Virus genome (UHGV): UHGV-0220445
Direction: 5' to 3' (one strand)
Length of the DNA stretch: 39,794 bases
Origin: a virus
Below are positions 2,300 to 16,220 of this stretch, piece by piece. The notes under the pieces are model-generated. The model had not been told where the DNA came from. It did not search any database and was given only the letters and a program-made list of their open reading frames with translations. Position numbers and translations under genes: made by a program. Each line of letters starts with the position of its first letter. Position 1 is the first letter of the stretch.

Positions 2300-3110
2300 A
2301 TCACATCCTTAAATATCAATAAGTTATAGTTGTTTATACAATCAAGAAAACAACTGAATAACAGATCAACGAAACATCAACGCTTTCACCCGATTTGGTC
2401 TAAAAAATTGACGTTTTCACACATCACTGCTTATACCCGTAATTCTACGCAGCAGACAGCGCCACAGCGTCCAATTTTCACCACAGACGACCCAACACAC
2501 TACCAACAAAAACACACGCTCAAAATCGCTCCCGTTGCGTTACACAACCATATAAACAACTTATTTTCAGGTATAACGAAACAACTAAATAACACATATG
2601 CCATTTCCAAAAACAACCAACCTCTTTATGGCAGGCTACCGAAAAGACCCACCTCTTCTCCCCAGGCTACCGGACAACCAACCTAACTTTCACAGGCAAT
2701 CCGAAAAACATTCATACGCGCGATACCCACGATACGCCATTCCCCCAAATAGCGAAGCACACCAGAATCACTGAAACCCCCAACGAAGCCTGTAACCGCA
2801 AGGATTCTCTCAATCCCAAAAGACACGAAACATAACAATCACGGGAAACGCCATTACCCAATACACGAATAACTACAAAAGCCTTTCACACTCCAGACAA
2901 ACAACTCAAACACAATAACGAAAGCAATCGCCCACCTGCCATTACTCCATAGACGGAGAAGAACAATCACCAAAACGACGAGAACACCCCATAGAAGAAC
3001 CACCGCAAAACTAACGAAACCACATACACCGACAGGGAAAACAACACACCCAATTCACCAACAGAATTAGTCGCCGTATAGAACGTTCTGGAAGGAGTGA
3101 GCATTAACGC
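2300..3110 (+). other. Non-coding tract with strong strand compositional asymmetry (A+C-rich, G- and T-poor on + strand)
   Basis: Manual count of one 60-nt row (2461-2520): A 24, C 23, G 6, T 7; same bias visible by eye across ~800 bp; only a low-complexity ORF overlaps. Confidence 0.7.
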
Positions 3111-3280
3111 CTATAGAGAGGTTGAAACAGATAAAACACGAAGAAAACACAACATGTATAGCGAACAAGACAGGTATGTATAAGTGGGGAGGGAAGGAGT
3201 GGTGTCGCCTCCTTTTTCGTATTTATTCAACTCCTGATTTTATCCCCCGTAACACCCCTACGGTCAGCCTTCGGTCCATA

Positions 3281-3411
3281 CAGGGAAAAGGCTGCATCCC
3301 GCTACAGAAACGGCTGGGTTGCCTTCGGGGAACGGCTGGGGATTTTCAGGGAAACGGTCGAGTTGCCTGTGTGGATTTCGGGAAAAGGCTCGATGCCGGT
3401 TCAGGAACGGC
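3281..3411 (+). repeat. Iteron-like array: six degenerate direct repeats C(A/G)GG(A/G)AA(A)CGGC
   Basis: Copies starting ~3281, 3305, 3326, 3347, 3379, 3402; spacing mostly 21-24 bp. Confidence 0.6.
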
Positions 3412-3730
3412 GGCGTACCGGTATAGCGAGAGGGAGAGTTGCGGCTACCCACCTGTAATGTGCGGGAAGAAGAGAGGCGCTCACGTGCAGGCGAACTTAC
3501 TTACCGCTGGATTCCCTCTGAATGCCCAGCTACAGCGTAATTGTGCCAGACAGCCAACGGGTCACAATCGATTTCAGTAGGTTTTCGGGGAGATGATTAT
3601 TCTGCCCACCAGCCACCTTCGGCCACTAAATCAGAATAATGTAAAAAGTGTACTCGGTACTGAACCTGAAAACTCACTGCCAAAACCACATTCACCGGAA
3701 TAAAATCCTTTTTCGCCTGTGCGTTATTGC

Positions 3731-3764
3731 GATAATAACACCATCAAGAAAACATGTTGTTTAA
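3731..3764 (+). promoter_or_regulatory. Early promoter (TGcGATAAT extended -10) plus leader motif caagaaaacatgttgttt
   Basis: gataat ~3731-3736 preceded by tgc; motif ~3745-3764; ATG 3775. Confidence 0.45.
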
Positions 3765-3774
3765 GGATTGCTTT

Positions 3775-4104
3775 ATGTTTGCAAATATCGACATCAACCA
3801 AATTAAGAAATTAACTCAAAAAGAGTTTGATCAGTTTTATGAGTTAGAAGGTTGGTCTTCCACTCTGATCAATTCGCGGTGGGTGCTTGAGCTGATGACT
3901 CGTGATGACGCACCTGCTTTGATGATTTGCGACATGGGTGAAGATGCTGACTTTATGGATATGAGCGAATTTTGTGTGGACACATACAACCGCAGCCAGA
4001 AGTACTACTTCACATGCGATAGCGAGAATGACGTTATTTCTAAGGTCTATCTTCACCTCGTCCAGCATTGGGACGTTCAGGAGTTTCTTGAAGTATTCGA
4101 GTAA
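3775..4104 (+). CDS. Hypothetical early protein (acidic)
   Basis: ORF track (3754..4104); ATG 3775 has SD aagga 7 nt upstream. Confidence 0.5.
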   Translation: MFANIDINQIKKLTQKEFDQFYELEGWSSTLINSRWVLELMTRDDAPALMICDMGEDADFMDMSEFCVDTYNRSQKYYFTCDSENDVISKVYLHLVQHWDVQEFLEVFE

Positions 4105-4210
4105 CCCCAACCAAAGCCAGCATTGCTGGCTTAATTTCTCTATAGCCGCAGGGAAGAACCTGCATATCGCTCATGCACCTGATCAATATGCTTTGTAGCC
4201 GTTTTCTCAC

Positions 4211-4248
4211 TGGTATTATTTACGCCATTGAGAAAACAAGTTGTTTAC
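4211..4248 (+). promoter_or_regulatory. Early promoter (TGgTATTAT) plus leader motif gagaaaacaagttgtttac
   Basis: Same architecture as other early genes. Confidence 0.4.
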
Positions 4249-4257
4249 GGAGTTGTA

Positions 4258-4569
4258 ATGAAAAAATCATTGGTTCTTGGTCTGGACAAAGACCAGAAGA
4301 GAAAAGAGAAGCCTGCACTGGTTGCTCAATTAACTTTGCTGGACATCGTTGCCAATGGAACCTCTATTCGTCTGTTCCGTGAAACAGCGGTGTCTTTCGA
4401 TAAAAACACCTTTACTCGTTATGTAATGAATGTTCGTCGCCAGCGTGGAAAAGGCTGGATGGCATTTCAAAGAATGTGGCCGGAACATCAGCTCGAACTG
4501 GCTTTGATGGAAGTTAACCGCGTGGCCCAGCAAGAAATTCAGAGAGCATCAGTGATGGCAATAGCCTGA
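4258..4569 (+). CDS. Hypothetical early protein (~103 aa)
   Basis: ORF track (4228..4569); ATG 4258 follows SD ggag. Confidence 0.5.
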   Translation: MKKSLVLGLDKDQKRKEKPALVAQLTLLDIVANGTSIRLFRETAVSFDKNTFTRYVMNVRRQRGKGWMAFQRMWPEHQLELALMEVNRVAQQEIQRASVMAIA

Positions 4570-4604
4570 TAATGTGCAAGTGGTAATTAGTCGACAGTAC
4601 GACA

Positions 4605-4631
4605 GCCCCGCCATCCTTACGGGGCTTTTTT
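4605..4631 (+). terminator. Intrinsic terminator (gccccg-ccatcctta-cggggc + TTTTTT)
   Basis: GC stem followed by T6. Confidence 0.65.
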
Positions 4632-4636
4632 GTATT

Positions 4637-4652
4637 GTAAGTACATACTTAC
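4637..4652. promoter_or_regulatory. Palindromic motif GTAAGTAcaTACTTAC (late-type element)
   Basis: Member of a motif family recurring before structural genes. Confidence 0.45.
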
Positions 4653-4695
4653 GATCATAGAATATAAAAATAACCAATACACTACGGAGAGTGAA

Positions 4696-5091
4696 ATGAC
4701 CATTAAACGCGAAAAACTGACAGTTGATGTTTACTATGCCTCTGAAACCGCCGAAGGTAAGAATGTGGCAAAAATCACCGTTGTTACGTACAACACCGAA
4801 ACTGGTGCCGAAGTCCAGGCCAGTACGATCGTGCGTAAAGGTGATGCCTCCGACGGCGAGTACGCGACTCAATACCAGTCTATTTTCGATGCAACTGACC
4901 CGCTGCTGCTGAAAATCGAGAACTACTTCCGCCAGGTTGATGAAGAGGTGTTTGAACCAATGATGAATATGGTTAACACCGTATTCGCCTCCAACCTGAA
5001 TACCAACACTACCTGGATTGGTCAGTACGGCCTGCGCATTACCTCCGGCATTCCTGCCGAGACCTTAATCCCTGAAAGCGTATTCGCTTAA
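4696..5091 (+). CDS. Hypothetical protein (131 aa), moron-like unit between two terminators
   Basis: ORF track (4630..5091); ATG 4696 follows SD ggagag. Confidence 0.55.
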   Translation: MTIKREKLTVDVYYASETAEGKNVAKITVVTYNTETGAEVQASTIVRKGDASDGEYATQYQSIFDATDPLLLKIENYFRQVDEEVFEPMMNMVNTVFASNLNTNTTWIGQYGLRITSGIPAETLIPESVFA

Positions 5092-5100
5092 TCCTCTTTA

Positions 5101-5127
5101 AATGGCGCGTAAACCGCGCCATTTTAT
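5101..5127 (+). terminator. Intrinsic terminator (aatggcgcg-taaac-cgcgccatt + TTTATT)
   Basis: 9-bp stem plus T-rich tail. Confidence 0.6.
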
Positions 5128-5137
5128 TAAGCCCGAT

Positions 5138-5183
5138 AACAATTTGTTTTCTGCCTTATCTGATTTGTGAAAATGATTTCACT
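5138..5183 (+). promoter_or_regulatory. Early promoter: motif aacaatTTGTTTtctgcc (-35-like TTGTTT) ~19 bp upstream of GAAAAT
   Basis: Sequence pattern shared with 1062-1100. Confidence 0.4.
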
Positions 5184-5208
5184 GAAGCAACTTAATAAGG
5201 AAACCATC

Positions 5209-5583
5209 ATGGGACTTGATATCTATATCGAGACACAGCCTAAAAACGATCTGAATAACGAGGCATCCAGAAAGCAGGTTGCTTACTTCCGTAAGTTCAA
5301 TGCGCTCGTTGGGTGGATGGAGCGCAACGTAGGTGAAGTCGAAAATTGTGAGCTTTTAGAATTAACGATGAATGACATTTGTTTTCTGAAGGCTCATTTG
5401 ATGCACATAAACGAAAGCAATTGCGAAGAGTACTTGCCTACCCGGGAAGGTTTTTTCTTCGGCAGTCAGGAGTACGATGAAGGTTACTGGCATGATGTGG
5501 GGCAGTTGAAAGAGCTTGTGGAAGACCTGATTAAGAACCACGACTTTCACAATAACAGACTGACCTTCTGCGCCTGGTGGTAA
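5209..5583 (+). CDS. Hypothetical early protein (~124 aa)
   Basis: ORF track (5167..5583); ATG 5209 follows SD aagga. Confidence 0.5.
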   Translation: MGLDIYIETQPKNDLNNEASRKQVAYFRKFNALVGWMERNVGEVENCELLELTMNDICFLKAHLMHINESNCEEYLPTREGFFFGSQEYDEGYWHDVGQLKELVEDLIKNHDFHNNRLTFCAWW

Positions 5584-5585
5584 AT

Positions 5586-5729
5586 ATGGGCGATTTCAAG
5601 AAACGCCTGAAGGAAAGAGCCGAGATGGTCAGAAAGCAAAACGCCTCTTCTGTCATCAGATACGCAAGGCAGTTTAGTCGCAACAACAAATCAGTTGAGG
5701 AAAAGATCCTTAGCGTAATCGGTCGATAA
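5586..5729 (+). CDS. Possible small basic protein (47 aa)
   Basis: ATG 3 nt after previous stop; followed by hairpin; below ORF-track length cut-off. Confidence 0.3.
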   Translation: MGDFKKRLKERAEMVRKQNASSVIRYARQFSRNNKSVEEKILSVIGR

Positions 5730-5734
5730 TTATT

Positions 5735-5758
5735 AAGGCCACCAGCATTGGTGGTCTT
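5735..5758 (+). repeat. Conserved stem-loop aaggccacca-gcat-tggtggtctt (copy 1)
   Basis: Near-identical copy at 6206-6229; both directly follow a gene. Confidence 0.6.
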
Positions 5759-5867
5759 AAATGACTTTTAATAACCGAAGGTTAGTTTGAAACCTGGCTA
5801 TCAACTTCCAGAACCTTTCTTGTGTATTCAGCCTGTATTAACTTCTTTTATGCCTTATCTACACTGC

Positions 5868-5901
5868 GATAATTACACCAACAAGAAAACAACATGTTTA
5901 C
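5868..5901 (+). promoter_or_regulatory. Early promoter (TGcGATAAT) plus leader motif caagaaaacaacatgtttac
   Basis: Same architecture as 3731-3764. Confidence 0.45.
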
Positions 5902-5912
5902 GCAGTGAGGAT

Positions 5913-6200
5913 ATGCTCATGACTGATTTCACCATTACCCCTAAAGCACAAAATGTATTCCTTGAATCATGGCTGGACTTGCCGGAAACAGAACAGCAAG
6001 AAATGGATCATGTGGATTATGACGAGCAGGTAAGCACGCGATTCTTCCACTTTGAGGGATGCGTTTACGACATTGCCGACTTCATGCGAGATGACCGCTT
6101 CCCTGGATGGCACGCCAGTTATCCACTAAACGCCTTTGCCATGCTGATGATCCGTGTGGGTGATTCAGGGGATACCATCGACATCGGTCTGCTCCACTAA
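5913..6200 (+). CDS. Hypothetical early protein (~95 aa)
   Basis: ORF track (5787..6200); start at ATG 5913 or 5919 downstream of promoter motif. Confidence 0.45.
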   Translation: MLMTDFTITPKAQNVFLESWLDLPETEQQEMDHVDYDEQVSTRFFHFEGCVYDIADFMRDDRFPGWHASYPLNAFAMLMIRVGDSGDTIDIGLLH

Positions 6201-6205
6201 AGACT

Positions 6206-6229
6206 AAGGCCACCAATGCTGGTGGCCTT
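6206..6229 (+). repeat. Conserved stem-loop aaggccacc-aatgct-ggtggcctt (copy 2)
   Basis: Perfect 9-bp stem; followed by C-rich G-poor tract 6236-6330. Confidence 0.6.
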
Positions 6230-6330
6230 AAATGACCATCCTGTTTCCCGCAGGCTAAAAACACCAACCTCTTACCTCCAGGCAACCGACAAACCCACCT
6301 GTTCCCGTCCGGCTACCGCAACTTTCCACT

Positions 6331-6389
6331 TTGACGCCTTATTCGTACAACGATAATTAACACCAACAAGAAAACAATATGTTATTTAC
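6331..6389 (+). promoter_or_regulatory. Early promoter TTGACG-15-GATAAT plus leader motif caagaaaacaatatgttatttac
   Basis: Best sigma70-like match among the early promoters. Confidence 0.5.
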
Positions 6390-6404
6390 GATAAGGAATT
6401 AATC

Positions 6405-6887
6405 ATGAATTTTATCGCTACTGTAAACGCACCCGCACATGGCAATATCGCTGTAACGTTCTCTGACATTGAAAAACGAGTACTTGGTGCCTGGCGTCAC
6501 AATGAGACGGTAGAACTGTCAGAACAAGAAAAATGCATTATTGCACGCGACATCATTGGCAATCGTCGTTACTCGCGGGTATTTGAGAAAGCGTATGTGG
6601 TAAATTCTGGGTTCGGAACGTTCGTCTTTCCGGTGCGCTCCGGGCGATTCTGCCAGTCCAAGCTGATTGAGTTCGCTACGCAGATTTCTGTCTGGATTAA
6701 AACTCAATCGTCGTTCAAATTTTCCGACGATGAAGCAGTATCGCAGGGGATGCGGATCGCCAACAATGCGATTAAATGCAAAAACATTACGTATACCGCT
6801 GGCGTTGACACATGGAAACTGTTTTGCGCTAACTTTATGCTGAATGTATACGCAAGCAACCGCATCCACATCCTTGATGGCGTGTAA
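6405..6887 (+). CDS. Hypothetical early protein (160 aa)
   Basis: ORF track; SD aagga upstream. Confidence 0.55.
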   Translation: MNFIATVNAPAHGNIAVTFSDIEKRVLGAWRHNETVELSEQEKCIIARDIIGNRRYSRVFEKAYVVNSGFGTFVFPVRSGRFCQSKLIEFATQISVWIKTQSSFKFSDDEAVSQGMRIANNAIKCKNITYTAGVDTWKLFCANFMLNVYASNRIHILDGV

Positions 6888-6890
6888 CTG

Positions 6891-6920
6891 AGAAGAGGGC
6901 CAGAAACGGCCCTTTCTCTA
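6891..6920 (+). terminator. Putative terminator (agggcc-agaaac-ggccct + TTTCTCT)
   Basis: Stem-loop immediately after stop at 6887. Confidence 0.45.
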
Positions 6921-6936
6921 TAGCCACCAGCTGCCG

Positions 6937-7014
6937 CAGGGAAATTTTCAGAAACGGCGAGGAACGTATTCATGAGCCGACGGGAAACGGCCAGGATTTT
7001 TTCGGGAAACGGCG
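6937..7014 (+). repeat. Second iteron-like array (cagggaaa, cagaaacggcg, cgggaaacggcc, cgggaaacggcg)
   Basis: Same repeat family as 3281-3411. Confidence 0.55.
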
Positions 7015-7436
7015 GGGGTCGCCTTTATGTAGAAAACTGAGCGGGAGAAACCCGGAATCGCGCCAGAAATTGCGTAGCGGCGCTGGGGTATCGCTGGTGG
7101 GGGGGTCAGCCCCTGGGCCATCCAGATAGCTTTCGCTATGTGATTATGTGAATCCGTGGGTAAATCACTGTAAGCGCGTACACGTTGCCCAACGTGGCAA
7201 TCATACGCGAGCGGATACGGAACAAAACAAAATGCCGATCTGCGCCGACAAATAAACGCGGATCACATAGCAAGACTAAAAGCCAATGATTAGCCATACG
7301 TTATAGCGCAATATAACGCATTTTGAGCGCGTTAATGTGTTAAGTAATGGGTATGTACTGGTAAGGATATAAAAGCGCGTCTATGGCGTTATTTTGGCGC
7401 TTATTTTTATGTTGTTGGAGTGAGTCAAAGACAATA

Positions 7437-7511: not shown

Positions 7512-7742
7512 TTATTTGTGCAAACTGATTTTAAATCCCATTTCTACAAACGCTTTTAGCATTAAAAATATATCAGCGTCATTCACGTCTGCTTTTTTTC
7601 GCTCCTGGTCGCTCAATAAGTCAATTTTGCGCGTCGTTTCATCGATAAACTCGACTGAGCGCCCAGCGTAACCAGCGATCCCAGCGATGCGATTAACAAA
7701 ATATTCATTGCGCACGTTAACGCCAGCGATAAGAATAAACAT
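7512..7742 (-). CDS. Small hypothetical protein (76 aa), paralog A
   Basis: ORF track; N-terminus shares MxIxIxGVN...IAG.AGYA with 7785..8012. Confidence 0.55.
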   Translation of the reverse strand: MFILIAGVNVRNEYFVNRIAGIAGYAGRSVEFIDETTRKIDLLSDQERKKADVNDADIFLMLKAFVEMGFKISLHK

Positions 7743-7784: not shown

Positions 7785-8012
7785 TTATTTTTCTAAGTGA
7801 ATATTAAAGCCAGCGTTTAAAAATTCTTGAAGCATTAAAGTTACATCAGCTTCATGGATTCCTGCGCGCGCTCTATGTTCTACGTCATTGATGTTTATTT
7901 TAAACGTTGTTTCGTCAACCACTTCAGAACTTAGAGCATACCCAGCTAAACCAGCAATATCATAAACAAGAGTATGATTGTTGATATTTACGCCAGAGAT
8001 GAAAATAACCAT
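7785..8012 (-). CDS. Small hypothetical protein (75 aa), paralog B
   Basis: ORF track; paralogous to 7512..7742. Confidence 0.55.
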   Translation of the reverse strand: MVIFISGVNINNHTLVYDIAGLAGYALSSEVVDETTFKININDVEHRARAGIHEADVTLMLQEFLNAGFNIHLEK

Positions 8013-8059: not shown

Positions 8060-8710
8060 TTACGCTTTGAAAGCATCAGCCAGATAGTTATAGAAATCAT
8101 TTTTAATAAAGCGATATTGCTGAGTACCAGCTTTCGCGCTCCCAGCTCCTTTGACTTTTTCAACAAGTCCGAGACGTTCGCAAAGATTGATCAACTGGTT
8201 GGCTTGAGTATAGCCAGCGTCCAATTTAATTTCACACGCTTTTTTAGCTTCATTCATTAAATCGAAAACAGCGCCATTAGTGAACGTGTCGATCTCGTCG
8301 TTAATCATATCGATTAAAGCGAATACACGAGATCCGGACATATCAGCGACGGAATAAACACACTTTCCAGCTTTAATGGATTTAACCAGATAAACCAGTT
8401 TTTCCAGAGAATAACTGTTAGTCATTGCATCACGGAAAAAAACTTCTGGCGCTTGTTTGCTTGCTTTGATCGCATAGTAGAAAACAGAGCATAATTTTTC
8501 GTCTTCTACAGCGTTTACAACGTTGTTGATGAAGTAAGCAAGTTTAGTGGTAGCAGCTTGCATATTTGCTTTATCTGCTTTGGTGTGCGTACCATTTTTA
8601 TAATGTTCGTTATATGTTTGAGTTGCCAGATCTGCTTTTTCGCGCAGTTCATCGGATACAATGGAAGCAGCTTCAATGATGGATTTTTTAGAAATGATAA
8701 TGTTAGTCAT
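8060..8710 (-). CDS. Hypothetical protein (216 aa)
   Basis: ORF track; no family recognised. Confidence 0.5.
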   Translation of the reverse strand: MTNIIISKKSIIEAASIVSDELREKADLATQTYNEHYKNGTHTKADKANMQAATTKLAYFINNVVNAVEDEKLCSVFYYAIKASKQAPEVFFRDAMTNSYSLEKLVYLVKSIKAGKCVYSVADMSGSRVFALIDMINDEIDTFTNGAVFDLMNEAKKACEIKLDAGYTQANQLINLCERLGLVEKVKGAGSAKAGTQQYRFIKNDFYNYLADAFKA

Positions 8711-9003: not shown

Positions 9004-9525
9004 TTAAAACGGAAGGATTCGTTCAACCCAATCGAAGAAAACAAGTATTTTTCTGCCGTCTTCTAACTTAAGAGTGACCTGGCAAGCATCAACGCCTCTT
9101 GATACCCCTTCTATTTCACGACCGTCTGCCATGTAGACCCTTATAGATTGGTCGTTTTGATAAGCCTTGCGACATATCGCAAAAAAGTCACGACGTGATG
9201 GCTGATTAACCATCTGTTCATTGTTCAGTGTTAGTCGACCTGTGAATGAAGTGTCAACCTCTTCTATGCCTGACTCAATTGTGCTAATGCGCTCAAGAGG
9301 GAGCCTTACACGATTTGTGTTGCTAAACGGATCTGGTGTGAGGTTCAGCTTATTTCTTGCGCTCAACAGCCCGTAGACATACATGCAAAACACTTGGCCG
9401 TCTTCGAGAGTGACTCTTACAGGAAATTTTGCACTCCGCCAGAAGAGCAAGGTGCGCTCAGCATGTTCGTAGTCTCGCGGCCAGACTTCAGCCGGTATGC
9501 CGTAGGTGATGTCCAATGTTTTCAT
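9004..9525 (-). CDS. Hypothetical protein (173 aa)
   Basis: ORF track; start overlaps the stop of the upstream gene. Confidence 0.5.
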   Translation of the reverse strand: MKTLDITYGIPAEVWPRDYEHAERTLLFWRSAKFPVRVTLEDGQVFCMYVYGLLSARNKLNLTPDPFSNTNRVRLPLERISTIESGIEEVDTSFTGRLTLNNEQMVNQPSRRDFFAICRKAYQNDQSIRVYMADGREIEGVSRGVDACQVTLKLEDGRKILVFFDWVERILPF

Positions 9526-12200: not shown

Positions 12201-12218
12201 GTGGATTGTAGCAATAAA

Positions 12219-12899
12219 ATGGATGTAAAAATCACGATTTTGCAGGTTGATGTTGCCAACCTTCGCCCGAATACCTGGAACACCAATTCGGTTGGTGCGC
12301 AGAATTTTGAAAAACTGAAAGGTTCTATCGAAAAATTGGGCTTTTTTAAGCCAATTTTGGCTCGTGAACTTGAAGATGGATTTTTTGAAATCCTCGGCGG
12401 CGAACATCGCTGGCGTGCTGCTATTGAGCAAGGAATTTCAACGGTTCCGGTGCTTTCTGTGGGCAAAATTAGCGATGTCGTAGCTAAACAGATGTCACTG
12501 GTGGACAACGAGCGATACGGTGAAGACGACCAAATCGCATTGCAACGCTTCATTGAAGAAATTCAGTCAGAACTTGACTATCAACTGTCTGAAATCGCCC
12601 CGTATGACGACGAAATCTCGATGGTTTTAGCAAAAGAGGCGGCAATCGACCTTGAAGCACTGGAGGCGTTGTCTCGTGGTAGTGATGAGCCTGTCGATAC
12701 CGACAAACGAGAGAAAACCGAACGTGTGGGTGCGGAACATCAGACCATGCGCTTCAAAGTAACTTTCGATGCGTCAGATCGTGTTGCAGAAACCATAAAA
12801 AACATCATCAAAGAGCAGGCTATTAACACCGGTAATGAAATGGAGAACGCTGGTGAGGCTCTGGTGTGGCTGGTCGACTACTACAAGGAGCGTATGTAA
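12219..12899 (+). CDS. ParB/Srx-fold (ParB N-terminal domain-like) protein
   Basis: ParB box-like motif ILGGEHRWRAA; ORF track 12201..12899 (GTG); ATG 12219 chosen. Confidence 0.6.
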   Translation: MDVKITILQVDVANLRPNTWNTNSVGAQNFEKLKGSIEKLGFFKPILARELEDGFFEILGGEHRWRAAIEQGISTVPVLSVGKISDVVAKQMSLVDNERYGEDDQIALQRFIEEIQSELDYQLSEIAPYDDEISMVLAKEAAIDLEALEALSRGSDEPVDTDKREKTERVGAEHQTMRFKVTFDASDRVAETIKNIIKEQAINTGNEMENAGEALVWLVDYYKERM

Positions 12900-13567
12900 T
12901 GACCAAAAAGTTTGAAATCGTATATCGCGACCCGGCAGATCTTATTCCCTATGAGATGAATGCCAAAAAGCATGATGAACAGCAGATCCGAGATCTGGCC
13001 GCAGCCATTAAAAAGCGCGGATTTGACCAGCCAATTACGGTCGATAAGAACGACGTAATTATTACTGGCCACGGCCGCCGTGAGGCTGCAATTTTTGCTG
13101 GACTTGAGCGCGTGCCGGTTATTGTTCGCGATGATCTGAGTGATGACGAGGTACGTGCAAAGCGCCTTGAAGATAACCGACTTGCCAGCATTGATTACGA
13201 TGCAATTAAGCTACAGAAAGAGCTTGAGTCGCTTGTTCTGGACGATATCGAGGTTTTCGGCTTCGAAGAGCGTGAGTTGAATGTTCTCGTTGGCAGTATG
13301 ACAGAAGAAATGGACACCGACTCGCTAGTTATCGATCTTGGCGAAGAAACTAAACGACAGAAGGATGAACACACCGAGATCAGTCGTGAAGTTGCAGCGG
13401 AAGAAGTACGTGTTGTCGACGTATTGGGCTTTAAAACGCTCCCTGCTGGCTCTGCCATTGTTGTTGGTGATTTGCTTGCCCATATGGAAGAAATGACGGG
13501 AGAAAGCGGGGTAGACGCATTTGTGGCATATGCGGAGAAGATCTCTTCCGGGGAGATGGCTGCATGA
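12899..13567 (+). CDS. Second ParB/Srx-fold protein (paralog)
   Basis: Motif ITGHGRREAA; ATG overlaps upstream stop (ATGTAATG). Confidence 0.6.
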   Translation: MTKKFEIVYRDPADLIPYEMNAKKHDEQQIRDLAAAIKKRGFDQPITVDKNDVIITGHGRREAAIFAGLERVPVIVRDDLSDDEVRAKRLEDNRLASIDYDAIKLQKELESLVLDDIEVFGFEERELNVLVGSMTEEMDTDSLVIDLGEETKRQKDEHTEISREVAAEEVRVVDVLGFKTLPAGSAIVVGDLLAHMEEMTGESGVDAFVAYAEKISSGEMAA

Positions 13568-14229
13568 GCAAATACATCATCAACGTATCGTTTCAGACAC
13601 GCGTAAATAAAACCACGCGCACGTTGGAAATCGCTGAGTCGTTCGGGCTTGGCCTGGACGAAAAAGAGTGGACGCTTTACGACAATCTGGAGCTGGAAGT
13701 GAAGCAGGGCGATGTGGTGTACATCACCGGCCAATCCGGTTCCGGCAAATCCGTTGTGCTGCGCGAGTTGCAACGACAGATGAAGGATGAAGGGCTGTCT
13801 GTAGCCTCCATCGATGATTTTACCTTCGATAATGAGGTTAACGTCATCGATCAGTTGGGCAAAACGACCAGTGATGCGCTTGGGTTGTTATCTATGGCTG
13901 GTCTGAACGATGCATATCTGTTTGTTCGCAAGCCTTCTGAAATGTCAGACGGCCAGAAATATCGTCTCAAGATTGCCAAACTGATTGAGTCAGGCGCTAA
14001 AGTATGGGCTGCTGACGAGTTCGGCGCTGTTCTCGACCGTGTAACCGCTCAGGTTGTGGCGTCTAACCTCCAGCGTGCCGCTCGAAAGGTTGGTGCGACG
14101 GTAATGGTGGCGACGACTCACGAAGACCTGAAGAACGCGCTGCGCCCTGATATGCAGATCACCAAGCACTACAAAGAACGCGTGAAGGTGGAATATCACA
14201 ATGGTAGTCATGATGAGGTCCATTCATGA
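13564..14229 (+). CDS. ABC-type ATPase, nucleotide-binding domain only (221 aa)
   Basis: Walker A GQSGSGKS, signature-like MSDGQKYR, Walker B VWAADE, H-loop ATTHE; ATGA overlap upstream. Confidence 0.65.
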   Translation: MSKYIINVSFQTRVNKTTRTLEIAESFGLGLDEKEWTLYDNLELEVKQGDVVYITGQSGSGKSVVLRELQRQMKDEGLSVASIDDFTFDNEVNVIDQLGKTTSDALGLLSMAGLNDAYLFVRKPSEMSDGQKYRLKIAKLIESGAKVWAADEFGAVLDRVTAQVVASNLQRAARKVGATVMVATTHEDLKNALRPDMQITKHYKERVKVEYHNGSHDEVHS

Positions 14230-15116
14230 CGGACATCATCATTAAACGCTACCGCCCTGAAGAGTTTCCGCGTCATCTGGACTTTCTGGAGCGAATGACT
14301 GTTACAAAGGGAACTGTAGAGGACTGGCACGCTCTTAAGTCGCTTCACTACAAAACAGACGGCAAACCTTTCGCGCCAACTTACTATCGCTGCGAACTTG
14401 ATGACCGTCTGGTGGGCGTCGTGGTTATGGCTTACCCGAAACTACTGTTGGCACCTCGCCACCGCATGTTTCCTAAGTTGAAACCAACCACTAATACCAC
14501 CGTGGCTAACCAGTACTGGGGTCGGTACGTGAATAACAACTTTGCGGTGATCAGTCGCTCAGTTGTGGATACTCAGTATCGTGGCGTAGGCGTCTCTTAT
14601 CGAATGATTAACCTGGTTAGCAGGATGCATGACCGGCCAATCATTGAGATCCAGTCCTCGATGAGCAAATACAATCCCTTCGCCATGAAAGCAGGGTTTA
14701 AGTTCATCCGCCCTGAGCGACCGAAGAGCTATGAAAGTGCACTGCGTGTGTTCCAGCGCCATTTCCGCTCCGACCCGGGTGATAACGAGGCGATCGTTAA
14801 AGAGTTGTTCGCTATGAGCGAGTCTCGTCGTCGCCGTGCACTGCGTGATCTGGTGGCGGACTACCACAAGAACAGTTCCCTGGCAAAAGCAGGGCGGAAT
14901 CGTGGCACGACGATTCAGGACATTGCCGACAGTCTGGTGGACGAGGCCAGCATTGTGAAGCTGCTCAAGGACATTCACAACCTGAGCTTTACGTCTCCGT
15001 TGTATGGTGTGTACCGAAACCCTGACTTTGGCCGTCGACTGCCTGAAACGCTGCCACTGCTGGCATTCGACAAACAACCTTTGGATAAACCGTTAGAAAT
15101 TGCTTTACCGGCATAA
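14226..15116 (+). CDS. Hypothetical protein with possible GNAT-like acyltransferase core (296 aa)
   Basis: Pattern VGVVVMAY ... FAVISRSVVDTQYRGVGVSYRMINLV resembles the GNAT acyl-CoA binding motif; tentative. Confidence 0.35.
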   Translation: MTDIIIKRYRPEEFPRHLDFLERMTVTKGTVEDWHALKSLHYKTDGKPFAPTYYRCELDDRLVGVVVMAYPKLLLAPRHRMFPKLKPTTNTTVANQYWGRYVNNNFAVISRSVVDTQYRGVGVSYRMINLVSRMHDRPIIEIQSSMSKYNPFAMKAGFKFIRPERPKSYESALRVFQRHFRSDPGDNEAIVKELFAMSESRRRRALRDLVADYHKNSSLAKAGRNRGTTIQDIADSLVDEASIVKLLKDIHNLSFTSPLYGVYRNPDFGRRLPETLPLLAFDKQPLDKPLEIALPA

Positions 15117-15587: not shown

Positions 15588-16220
15588 ATGACGGTCGAAA
15601 AAGACGAGGTAAAAACTCGCCTGACACCAGCGGAGTGGGCCGAAGCTGAAGCCAAATGGACGTCAGGCGAATATACACTCTCAAAGCTGGAGGAAGAGTA
15701 CGGCATTCGTCGTGAAACACTCTCCAGACATTTCAAAAAGCGAGGATTAGAGAAAGGCGCGGACTCTGTTGGGAAGATGGTTCGTGAGTCTCTTAAATCT
15801 GACGCAGAGCTTCGCGCTAAAGCCCGTGCGGAAAAGATAGAAGAACGTCGTACACGTTATGACGGCTGGGCGTATGCGTTGGGGCAGATGGTGATGGTCG
15901 AAGTCACTACGGCCAAACGTGAGGGTAAGCCTTTAGGGGCGATTGAGGATTCTCTCAAGAGCTTACAGAGAGCCAGTAATACCCTTGCAAAATGCTTTGA
16001 AGTTTCGTCCAAAGCATTGGGCATGGATCATGCGGAAAATGACGAGGAAGAAATTCCGAACCTGGTATTTGGTGAGCTTACGCCTTCCCAGGTGGCGAAA
16101 TTACGTCAGGAAGACGACGAGCCTGAAATCATCGATGACGAATTGCTTGAGACGTTAGAAGAAGAAGCTCTAAGCGAATTTGATGCGACAGATGATGGAA
16201 GTGAAGGGGAGGACGAATAA
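15588..16220 (+). CDS. Putative terminase small subunit
   Basis: Directly upstream of and overlapping the large terminase; HTH-like N-terminus, acidic C-terminal tail. Confidence 0.5.
   Translation: MTVEKDEVKTRLTPAEWAEAEAKWTSGEYTLSKLEEEYGIRRETLSRHFKKRGLEKGADSVGKMVRESLKSDAELRAKARAEKIEERRTRYDGWAYALGQMVMVEVTTAKREGKPLGAIEDSLKSLQRASNTLAKCFEVSSKALGMDHAENDEEEIPNLVFGELTPSQVAKLRQEDDEPEIIDDELLETLEEEALSEFDATDDGSEGEDE

Follow-up and report, generated by a model that had tools for sequence, protein, structure and literature searches.

Conserved, helically phased direct-repeat arrays in SSU5-like phage-plasmids as probable protein-binding sites

Introduction

What purpose is served by two arrays of short, evenly spaced direct repeats in an SSU5-like phage-plasmid? 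The window analysed here, a stretch of 39,794 nt taken at its full length, belongs to such an element and is ~98% identical to Escherichia phage Cyrano, whose plasmid form is pLF82 of host E. coli LF82. By megablast, the top match to window positions 2800-7400 is phage Cyrano (OV696614, 97.9% identity), and the next-best are other SSU5-like phage-plasmids from Escherichia, Klebsiella and Salmonella. The window is the reverse strand of the 108,379-bp pLF82 genome, window position x being pLF82 position 78047-x.

The SSU5-like elements, among them pHCM2 of S. Typhi, pMT1 of Y. pestis, pLF82 and ~110-kb resistance-carrying plasmids of Klebsiella, are among the commonest phage-plasmids of clinical Enterobacteriaceae, and only their plasmid replicon is understood. 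No other conserved non-coding feature of the family is as conspicuous as the arrays, which stand in the records unannotated or mis-annotated as a gene. The searchable literature yielded neither a description of the array repeats nor, for SSU5-type elements, a lytic origin or termini; for Cyrano, termini are also missing from the LF82 virome paper.

Layout of the repeats

The repeats form two arrays and one vestigial copy:

3277-3417, plus strand: array 1, six 22-bp units starting at 3277, 3299, 3321, 3343, 3374 and 3396
4137-4171, plus strand: vestigial third copy, TCTCTATAGCC then GCAGGGAAGAACCTGCATATCGCT, homologous to the start of both arrays
6934-7023, plus strand: array 2, three full units starting at 6943, 6976 and 6998, plus one partial unit
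6937, plus strand: the partial unit of array 2, CAGGGAAAT

All nine full units lie on the same strand and share a core of ~10 bp, GGGAAA(C/A)GGC. A position matrix trained on 63 units from 15 arrays of several lineages, the window's own units among them, gives the unit consensus (C/T)(A/C)GGGAAA(C/A)GGC(T)(G/A)G, with the information mostly confined to those ~10 bp. The nine window units, which are part of the training set, score 15.9-24.2 bits, against a 99th percentile of 6.9 in the background (71-nt windows) and a maximum of 16.2 outside the arrays.

The original prediction listed six copies in array 1, at 3281, 3305, 3326, 3347, 3379 and 3402, and a regular-expression search finds the motif at every one. 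The phasing it described also holds, with actual values tighter than the 21-24 bp given for the spacing: anchored on the conserved A(C/A)GG, the units of array 1 follow each other at 22, 22, 22, 31 and 22 bp. The second array that it placed at 6937-7014 is real as well, having motifs at 6949, 6981 and 7003 after the partial unit at 6937, with spacings of 33 and 22 bp by the same anchor. Array 2 ends in a small hairpin, GGCGGGGGTCGCC, then TTTAT. The regular expression also finds the motif in a terminator loop at 6901.

Motif counts show an excess over chance in the window, with clusters only in the arrays. GGRAAMGGC occurs 7 times in the window against an expectation of 1.39, with five of the matches inside the two arrays; a count of 7 was not attained in any of 100 shuffles. 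Over the whole of pLF82 (108,379 bp), clusters of the strict motif are found at array 1 and array 2 only.

The prefix that single related copies had been said to share is present as TCTCTATAGCC at 4137 and 6915, and there is an additional copy on the minus strand at 3109; in the pattern TCTCTATAGSC these are three copies in the window (3109 minus, 4137 plus, 6915 plus). Reverse-complemented, the TCTCTATAG prefix equals the 3' half of the RepA iteron (CTATAGAGA). We treat it as a side observation because it is limited to the E. coli lineage, SSU5-type elements differing there.

Conservation and helical phasing

Array 1 is positionally conserved in 20+ lineages. It is found at the homologous site in SSU5, in the pHCM2-type S. 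Typhi plasmid, and in Klebsiella, Enterobacter, Citrobacter and other Salmonella plasmids, relatives in which identity over the array-1 region is only 68-79%. Array 2 is also present in SSU5, in a Y. pestis pMT1-type contig and in others. The 521 nt around array 1 match 715 PLSDB plasmids, nearly all of them non-mobilizable, IncFIB-typed and ~110 kb long, from Klebsiella, Escherichia, Enterobacter, Salmonella, Citrobacter, Cronobacter and Shigella hosts. Searching IMG/VR with an exact pattern gave 77 loci. Except for three or four, these are SSU5-like contigs, and in many of them the two arrays share a strand at a distance of 3.0-4.2 kb. A further scan, of GTDB species genomes, adds Kluyvera, Buttiauxella and one 108-kb Yersinia pestis contig, taken to be pMT1; its matches comprise enterobacterial SSU5-like contigs plus seemingly unrelated ones, several of them closely spaced multiples, and no second family emerged from it. 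The pair of arrays, with one polarity and a separation of 3-4.2 kb, is likewise conserved in the 715 PLSDB plasmids and in the Kluyvera, Buttiauxella and Y. pestis contigs.

The spacing is kept more rigidly than the sequence. The series 22, 22, 22, 31, 22 of array 1 is identical across the Escherichia, Salmonella, Enterobacter and Citrobacter types, which are ~30% diverged; Klebsiella has 22, 22, 22, with 42-44 where one unit has decayed. In array 2 the spacing across lineages is 33-34, 22. The two most divergent elements retain the motif with a looser spacing (24/10/26 and 11/12/22). Among seven lineage representatives, mean pairwise identity is 0.85 in the cores and 0.60 in the spacers (permutation p<1e-4). 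Natural loss of exactly one 22-bp unit is seen in PhiR41_1 and again in one other locus (L024).

Composition shows a period as well. The autocorrelation of GGG within array 1 peaks at lag 11 (0.47), the A content of array 1 has Fourier power at 10.5-11 bp (p=0.0005), and the arrays are 55-59% G+C. With 2.1 helical turns in 22 bp and ~3 in 31-34 bp, all cores are expected on one face of B-DNA.

Genes and signals around the arrays

The features that matter for the interpretation are these:

2300-3180, plus strand: A+C-rich, G+T-poor tract of ~880 nt without a conserved gene, 5' of array 1
3122-3583, plus strand: chance ORF of 152 codons with a TTG start, overlapping array 1; CYRAN_104 in Cyrano
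3194-3218, plus strand: G-rich hairpin and T-run, AAGGAG-9 nt-CTCCTT-TTT, read from the sequence
6405-6887, plus strand: gene of a 160-aa protein (phrog_1641), predicted fold without a known match
6897-6919, plus strand: terminator of gene 6405-6887, GGGCC-AGAAAC-GGCCC-TTTCTCT, with the array motif in its loop
8060-8710, minus strand: 216-aa protein (phrog_1513), candidate binder
9004-9525, minus strand: FljA-like regulator of 173 aa (Pfam Flag1_repress, E 3e-69), alternative candidate binder

The tract 5' of array 1 has 70-77% A+C on the plus strand, an AT skew reaching +0.58 and a GC skew reaching -0.5, and its composition, more than its sequence, is kept across all lineages. Together with array 1 it makes up a gene-free stretch of ~1.5 kb that has no PGAP annotation. 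Its start is a copy of the promoter/leader module found before each small gene of the cassette described below, and its end, just 5' of array 1, is the hairpin at 3194-3218, which is paralogous to the terminator before array 2 and is flanked by conserved columns in the array-1 alignment. The terminator before array 2 has compensatory stem changes in other lineages, with the loop (G/A)GAAAC retained. Because the sequences 5' of both arrays are recognisably paralogous (TAAG-GGGxAGGGG...CTTTCT), we infer that a 'terminator plus array' module was duplicated. Both arrays and the vestigial copy sit directly 3' of terminators in the direction of transcription, the vestigial copy directly following that of gene 3754-4104.

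Between the arrays lies a cassette of six small genes sharing the conserved promoter/leader module, with zero Pfam, NCBIfam or PADLOC matches among them. Gene 6405-6887 always ends 30-60 bp 5' of array 2, the most divergent elements included. On the 3' side of array 2 there is a convergent operon. Its products are, in order, a pair of 75-aa paralogues, the 216-aa protein, the 173-aa Flag1_repress protein, and proteins of 197 and 92 aa followed by a UvsW-like helicase; beyond the helicase come a ParB_N pair, ATPases and the terminase.

A probable phased DNA site and its putative binder

The arrays are probably cis-acting double-stranded DNA sites for a putative sequence-specific protein that would assemble on one face of the helix. 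This DNA-level reading comes from comparing sequences: it is favoured by the rigid 22/31-bp spacing across ~30% divergence, by cores that are better conserved than spacers, by insertions and deletions of whole units, by the compositional period of 10.5-11 bp, and by the absence of a coding or RNA-structure signal. The spacing, core conservation, unit indels and periodicity thus support the general idea of the original prediction, that phased direct repeats form a putative protein-binding array.

In the mechanism that we propose, a protein encoded by the phage-plasmid would recognise the ~10-bp core GGGAAA(C/A)GGC. With a core every 22 bp (two turns) or 31-34 bp (three turns), its molecules would be aligned on one face of the DNA and could polymerise into a phased nucleoprotein complex, comparable to that of initiators on iterons or of adaptors on parC/tubC. 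Two such complexes of the same polarity, 3-4 kb apart, would bracket the cassette of small genes with their own promoters, and perhaps they pair, looping the segment between them. Their role might lie in a DNA transaction of the lytic phase: besides the plasmid oriV, the element would then have a second origin, of phage type, or an origin enhancer.

As binder, our tentative first choice, guided by a predicted fold, is the 216-aa winged-helix protein, which the original prediction had also named. It has an N-terminal helical domain and a predicted C-terminal winged helix (~residues 126-201), whose recognition helix and wing are invariant in the family; its winged-helix matches are generic, with ArsR and MarR equal in score. 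In all lineages that bear the arrays, the gene is no more than ~1 kb from array 2. In the LB lysogen its expression is at the floor (PMC9928086 supplementary table), which agrees with a function in the lytic phase. The proposal is weakened by a Serratia relative that keeps the protein (63% identity) with almost no array: two degenerate units 22 bp apart remain at the array-1 position, array 2 is missing, and the FljA-like gene and gene 6405 are absent. In this one case, co-occurrence favours the FljA-like protein and gene 6405 over the 216-aa protein.

The FljA-like regulator is the alternative candidate. Its gene is present even in the elements of non-flagellated Klebsiella and Y. pestis. In another relative (locus L095) identity of the FljA-like protein has dropped to 28%, with the array motif unchanged.

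Two further binders suggested originally, the ParB-like pair and the putative small terminase, showed no link to the arrays, from which (array 2) they lie 5.2 and 8.6 kb away. The plasmid replication initiator RepA, the remaining kind of candidate, is excluded as array binder because its own iterons are a different sequence 34 kb off. In pLF82, repA is at 31-1086 with iterons of the ATCCACTATAGAGAG type on both sides, spaced at 21 bp, and the Rep3 gene of the Serratia relative is accompanied by the same iteron type. The array motif is unrelated to those iterons, so the arrays are not RepA iterons.

A possible lytic origin

Among functions we rank a replication role first, as a possible lytic-phase origin or origin enhancer, by analogy and with due reserve. 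The element has a complete phage replisome without a known lytic origin; the arrays resemble iterons yet are unlike the oriV; P4 and SPP1 offer a precedent in which the origin consists of two arrays for the initiator with kilobases between them; and the protein that we favour as binder is silent in the lysogen.

Measured against an iteron origin, the geometry of the arrays agrees: they are direct tandem repeats in a single orientation with a period of ~22 bp. An adjacent initiator gene was not found, the neighbours being without Pfam or NCBIfam assignment. Within 300 nt of either array there is no DnaA box (allowing one mismatch) and no IHF consensus, and beside the arrays there is no AT-rich unwinding element, the local G+C being 55-59%. 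The cumulative GC skew of pLF82 was discarded as an origin marker, as it tracks gene orientation and carries no origin signal. The phage's own replication genes (DnaE, DnaB-like helicase, primase, ligase) are remote, at 45-70 kb from the arrays. Against the origin model stands the placement of both arrays behind terminators, which it leaves unexplained.

Alternative explanations

That placement is what a structural or regulatory role explains, and for this reason it comes a close second. A phage protein would coat and pair the arrays, looping or insulating the 3.5-kb early-gene cassette, which would thereby be silenced or shielded from read-through, each array acting as a roadblock behind its terminator. 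This explanation opposes the replication role and leaves the DNA-level binding reading intact; we regard it as a less probable alternative that deserves to be kept in view. The vestigial copy shares the position directly 3' of a terminator, the bracketed genes with their shared promoter/leader module are weakly expressed in lysogens, and the same polarity and the separation of 3-4.2 kb recur across lineages. Proteins that might do the coating are at hand, since the FljA-like protein and the 92-aa, regulator-like CYRAN_117 are expressed in LF82 lysogens (PMC9928086 supplementary table). On the other hand, no promoter is overlapped by the arrays, and CYRAN_109 is well expressed in lysogens, so silencing of the cassette is not uniform.

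An element acting at the RNA level is unlikely. Here the GGGAAAC repeats of lytic transcripts would bind the FljA-like protein, as its target or as a sponge of the CsrB/CsrA type. Salmonella FljA binds the fliC mRNA leader, and a bona fide Flag1_repress protein is encoded 2 kb from array 2; its gene and the arrays are jointly missing from the Serratia relative. The motif contains GGA, every unit is on the same strand, and the terminator loops before array 2 keep (G/A)GAAAC over compensatory stems. An exact 12-mer, TGAGCCGACGGG, at window 6974-6985 is common to the E. coli fliC leader and the E. coli-type array 2. The notion of arrays as fliC-leader mimics for FljA nevertheless fails: the array matrix gives the verified leader -8.0, no more than the background median, and a slightly better local match to the leader lies elsewhere in the window (26 vs 24). 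The array motif also remains unchanged beside the divergent L095 protein, and the 22/31-bp spacing and 11-bp periodicity are properties of a DNA helix.

Structure searches give this RNA explanation no help. In an Rfam scan (E<=10) no family reached its gathering score at or near the arrays, the sole overlap with array 1 being DUF3800-VIII at 3241-3289 on the minus strand (19.8 bits vs a cut-off of 40.2). RNAalifold on 23 diverse array-1 sequences gave -4.15 kcal/mol with covariation 0.02 for the plus strand, and on 12 sequences -15.9 with covariation +0.9 for the minus strand, where 3 of 28 pairs are kept through two-sided changes; neither consensus fold is supported. Complementarities of GGGA with TCCC, seen by eye, are not consistently retained and were set aside. 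Both arrays lie behind terminators, and in the LF82 lysogen transcriptomes CYRAN_104 is near the prophage background in LB, cell-culture medium and macrophages, while CYRAN_103, 5' of it, is at the detection floor under those conditions (PMC9928086 supplementary table). As far as can be tested, then, the arrays are not structured RNA.

It is also rather improbable that the ~1.5-kb module works as a single device, of a hitherto undescribed kind, made of the promoter module, the 880-nt unfoldable A+C-rich tract, the hairpin and the G-rich phased array, which recurs 3.6 kb further 3'. Two variants can be imagined: (i) a transcription-activated lytic origin, in which the early transcript might open the DNA or form an R-loop near the initiator filament, to be resolved later, perhaps, by the UvsW-like helicase as at T4 origins; (ii) a decoy, in which the C-rich, G-poor RNA might absorb Rho or another host RNA-binding protein, the arrays holding the FljA-like protein.

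A partition centromere has little in its favour. It would be parC- or tubC-like, with a winged-helix or ribbon-helix-helix adaptor polymerising on it, and dispersed like the centromeres of N15. The winged-helix similarity of the 216-aa protein is the generic one noted above, and its gene is at the floor in the lysogen, just where a partition adaptor would be expected, though the FljA-like and 92-aa proteins are expressed there. The ParA-like gene is ~40 kb from the arrays, with no array found in its vicinity; the genes beside the arrays encode no motor domain, and TubZ or ParM genes are not annotated. Partitioning of pMT1 is reportedly by a P1/P7-type parABS, and array 2 is conserved there despite it.

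We think even less of a packaging site, pac or cosB, at which a ring of the small terminase would wrap the phased repeats to begin packaging. TerS sites (SPP1 pacL/pacR, lambda cosB) typically consist of short, intrinsically bent repeats in phase, and the A-tract periodicity of 10.5-11 bp is compatible with wrapping. Sites of this kind are normally in or beside terS; the terS candidate here, at 15588-16220, is 8.6 kb from array 2 and 12 kb from array 1, and two sites 3.6 kb apart would be unexpected. An E. albertii derivative of 62 kb, in which the terminase and every virion gene have been deleted, keeps arrays of 97% identity, which counts weakly against packaging, as the deletion is possibly recent.

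That the repeats are internal to a 152-aa protein is hardly credible: the ORF at 3122-3583 exists and is annotated in Cyrano, but close relatives have frameshifting indels within it (-1, +1, -2, -4, -11 and -22 nt) that rule it out as a gene, the ORFs annotated over array 1 in the SSU5 (SSU5_109) and PhiR41_1 records disagree with it in frame and extent, PGAP calls none in hundreds of RefSeq plasmids and leaves 1.5-2 kb without annotation at array 1 in every RefSeq relative examined, and array 2 is intergenic.

Significance and comparison with known systems

The immediate gain is a correction of annotation, since CYRAN_104, SSU5_109 and similar ORFs are not genes. If these probable DNA sites serve as a lytic origin, as a centromere or as a scaffold for regulation, they would be markers of the changeover between maintenance as a plasmid and growth as a phage. 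In that case they would also offer a target for incompatibility or curing, and a defined DNA ligand for one of the several conserved proteins that have no assigned function.

Several known systems invite comparison. With the CsrB/RsmZ sponge RNAs the arrays share many GGA motifs ~20 nt apart on one strand; they differ in having no Rfam match, GGA loop hairpins, covariation or abundant lysogen transcript, and in a core that reaches well past GGA, to AAACGGC. Among centromeres, R1 parC (5+5 iterons of 11 bp, bound by ParR) likewise consists of two phased clusters of direct repeats, and its adaptor polymerises; at tubC of pBtoxis or phage c-st the adaptor, TubR, is a winged helix like our 216-aa candidate. 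Those sites adjoin parMR or tubRZ, whereas here no actin- or tubulin-like motor is annotated and the candidate adaptor is silent in the lysogen.

The iteron arrays of F, P1, R6K, RK2 and pPS10 (Rep3/RepA) have in common with ours tandem direct repeats in one orientation, a 22-bp period, partial conservation of the unit and more than one array per replicon (P1 incC/incA, the R6K origins). Ours are G+C-rich, in contrast, and lack an adjacent initiator, DnaA box, IHF site or AT-rich element. In the ori and crr of P4 (iterons of the alpha protein, 4.5 kb apart) and in oriL and oriR of SPP1 (G38P boxes), there are likewise two clusters of the same repeat, kilobases apart, in elements with their own replication proteins. 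In P4 and SPP1 one cluster is in or beside the initiator gene and binding is experimental, whereas our arrays are known from sequence alone. As phased repeats that probably bind a protein, the arrays are of a known kind; their arrangement is unusual and previously undescribed.

Repeated modules of the cassette and the tract before array 1

Every small gene of the cassette, the six-gene segment between the two arrays of phased repeats (array 1, 3277-3417, and array 2, 6934-7023), is preceded by a repeated module, ...GCCTTATC...TGCGATAAT-ACACCAACAAGAAAACAA-ATGTT, whose copies resemble early promoters under shared regulation, with a common 5' leader. The module is conserved in the Serratia relative too, and a further copy of it marks the start of an A+C-rich tract, which ends in a hairpin.

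3695-3770, 4201-4253, 5141-5176, 5832-5907, 6329-6383, and also about 2290-2365: promoter and leader module
2300-3180 (+): A+C-rich tract of 880 nt, with 70-77% A+C and G and T very scarce
3109-3119 (-), 4137-4147 (+), 6915-6925 (+): three copies of TCTCTATAG(G/C)C

The tract contains no conserved ORF, and CYRAN_103, the phage Cyrano gene annotated within it, is probably spurious. Its composition is kept across all lineages except the divergent element at locus L095, where an A+G-rich tract takes its place. Neither strand can fold; as RNA, C-rich and G-poor, the tract would be an ideal Rho-loading or decoy sequence. In lysogens its transcript does not rise above floor level. The short repeat TCTCTATAG(G/C)C is restricted to the E. 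coli lineage of the SSU5-like family, and its reverse complement is identical to the 3' half of the iteron that serves the plasmid's RepA (CCACTATAGAGAG). The copies may be RepA half-sites, or may merely be the scar of a lineage-specific duplication.

Hairpins and Chi sites around array 2

6897-6912: terminator hairpin of gene 6405-6887
6924-6931 (CCACCAGC) and 7093-7100 (GCTGGTGG): Chi sites either side of array 2
5733-5760 and 6204-6231: near-identical 28-nt terminator hairpins in opposite orientation

Homologs of the 6897-6912 hairpin occur at three loci in relatives (L017, L037, L096). Its loop, (G/A)GAAAC, is the array core and is constant between lineages, while the stem shows compensatory changes among them (GGGCC/GGCCC, GGGGC/GCCCC, GCGTC/GGCGC). 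Both Chi sites flanking array 2 are oriented for recognition by RecBCD travelling towards the array; the downstream site is conserved in all core SSU5-type lineages, with differing flanks, and the upstream one in most of them. Over the 108 kb of plasmid pLF82, Chi occurs 25 times, which is about the host density. A Chi octamer also lies inside each of the two inverted hairpins, which are 96% complementary, 445 nt apart, and bound gene 5787-6200; this pair could support inversion or cassette exchange.

Neighboring genes and the FljA-like protein

7512-7742 and 7785-8012 (-): paralogous gene pair in tandem, encoding phrog_1585 proteins of 75-76 aa
9004-9525 (-): FljA-like protein, full-length Pfam Flag1_repress
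12201-15116 (+): operon of two ParB_N-domain proteins and two ABC/AAA-type ATPases

The phrog_1585 pair, about 46% identical to each other and reduced to a single copy in some lineages, is placed between array 2 and the gene for the 216-aa candidate binding protein (8060-8710). The ParB_N/ATPase operon, silent in lysogens, immediately precedes the terminase genes. It has the look of a late or packaging-associated module, not of a system for plasmid partition. One deletion derivative of the SSU5-like family, the 62-kb E. albertii plasmid NZ_CP126909.1, has no terminase, portal, capsid or tail genes and retains the replication genes, arrays, cassette, and 216-aa and FljA-like genes.

The E. coli fliC 5' leader (...ATTGAGCCGACGGGTGGAAACCC...) contains an exact 12-mer of array 2, TGAGCCGACGGG (6974-6985). 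This match is confined to the E. coli-type array 2 and does not stand out statistically in the 40-kb window, and a position matrix built from 63 units of 15 arrays gives no support to a real fliC likeness.

FljA is the repressor of phase-1 flagellin. The FljA-like protein is conserved in SSU5-like phage-plasmids, including those of non-flagellated Klebsiella and those of Y. pestis, and LF82 lysogens express it at a moderate level. Its targets could be host fliC or phage mRNAs, which it would repress, and Salmonella fljA may have come from this phage-plasmid family.
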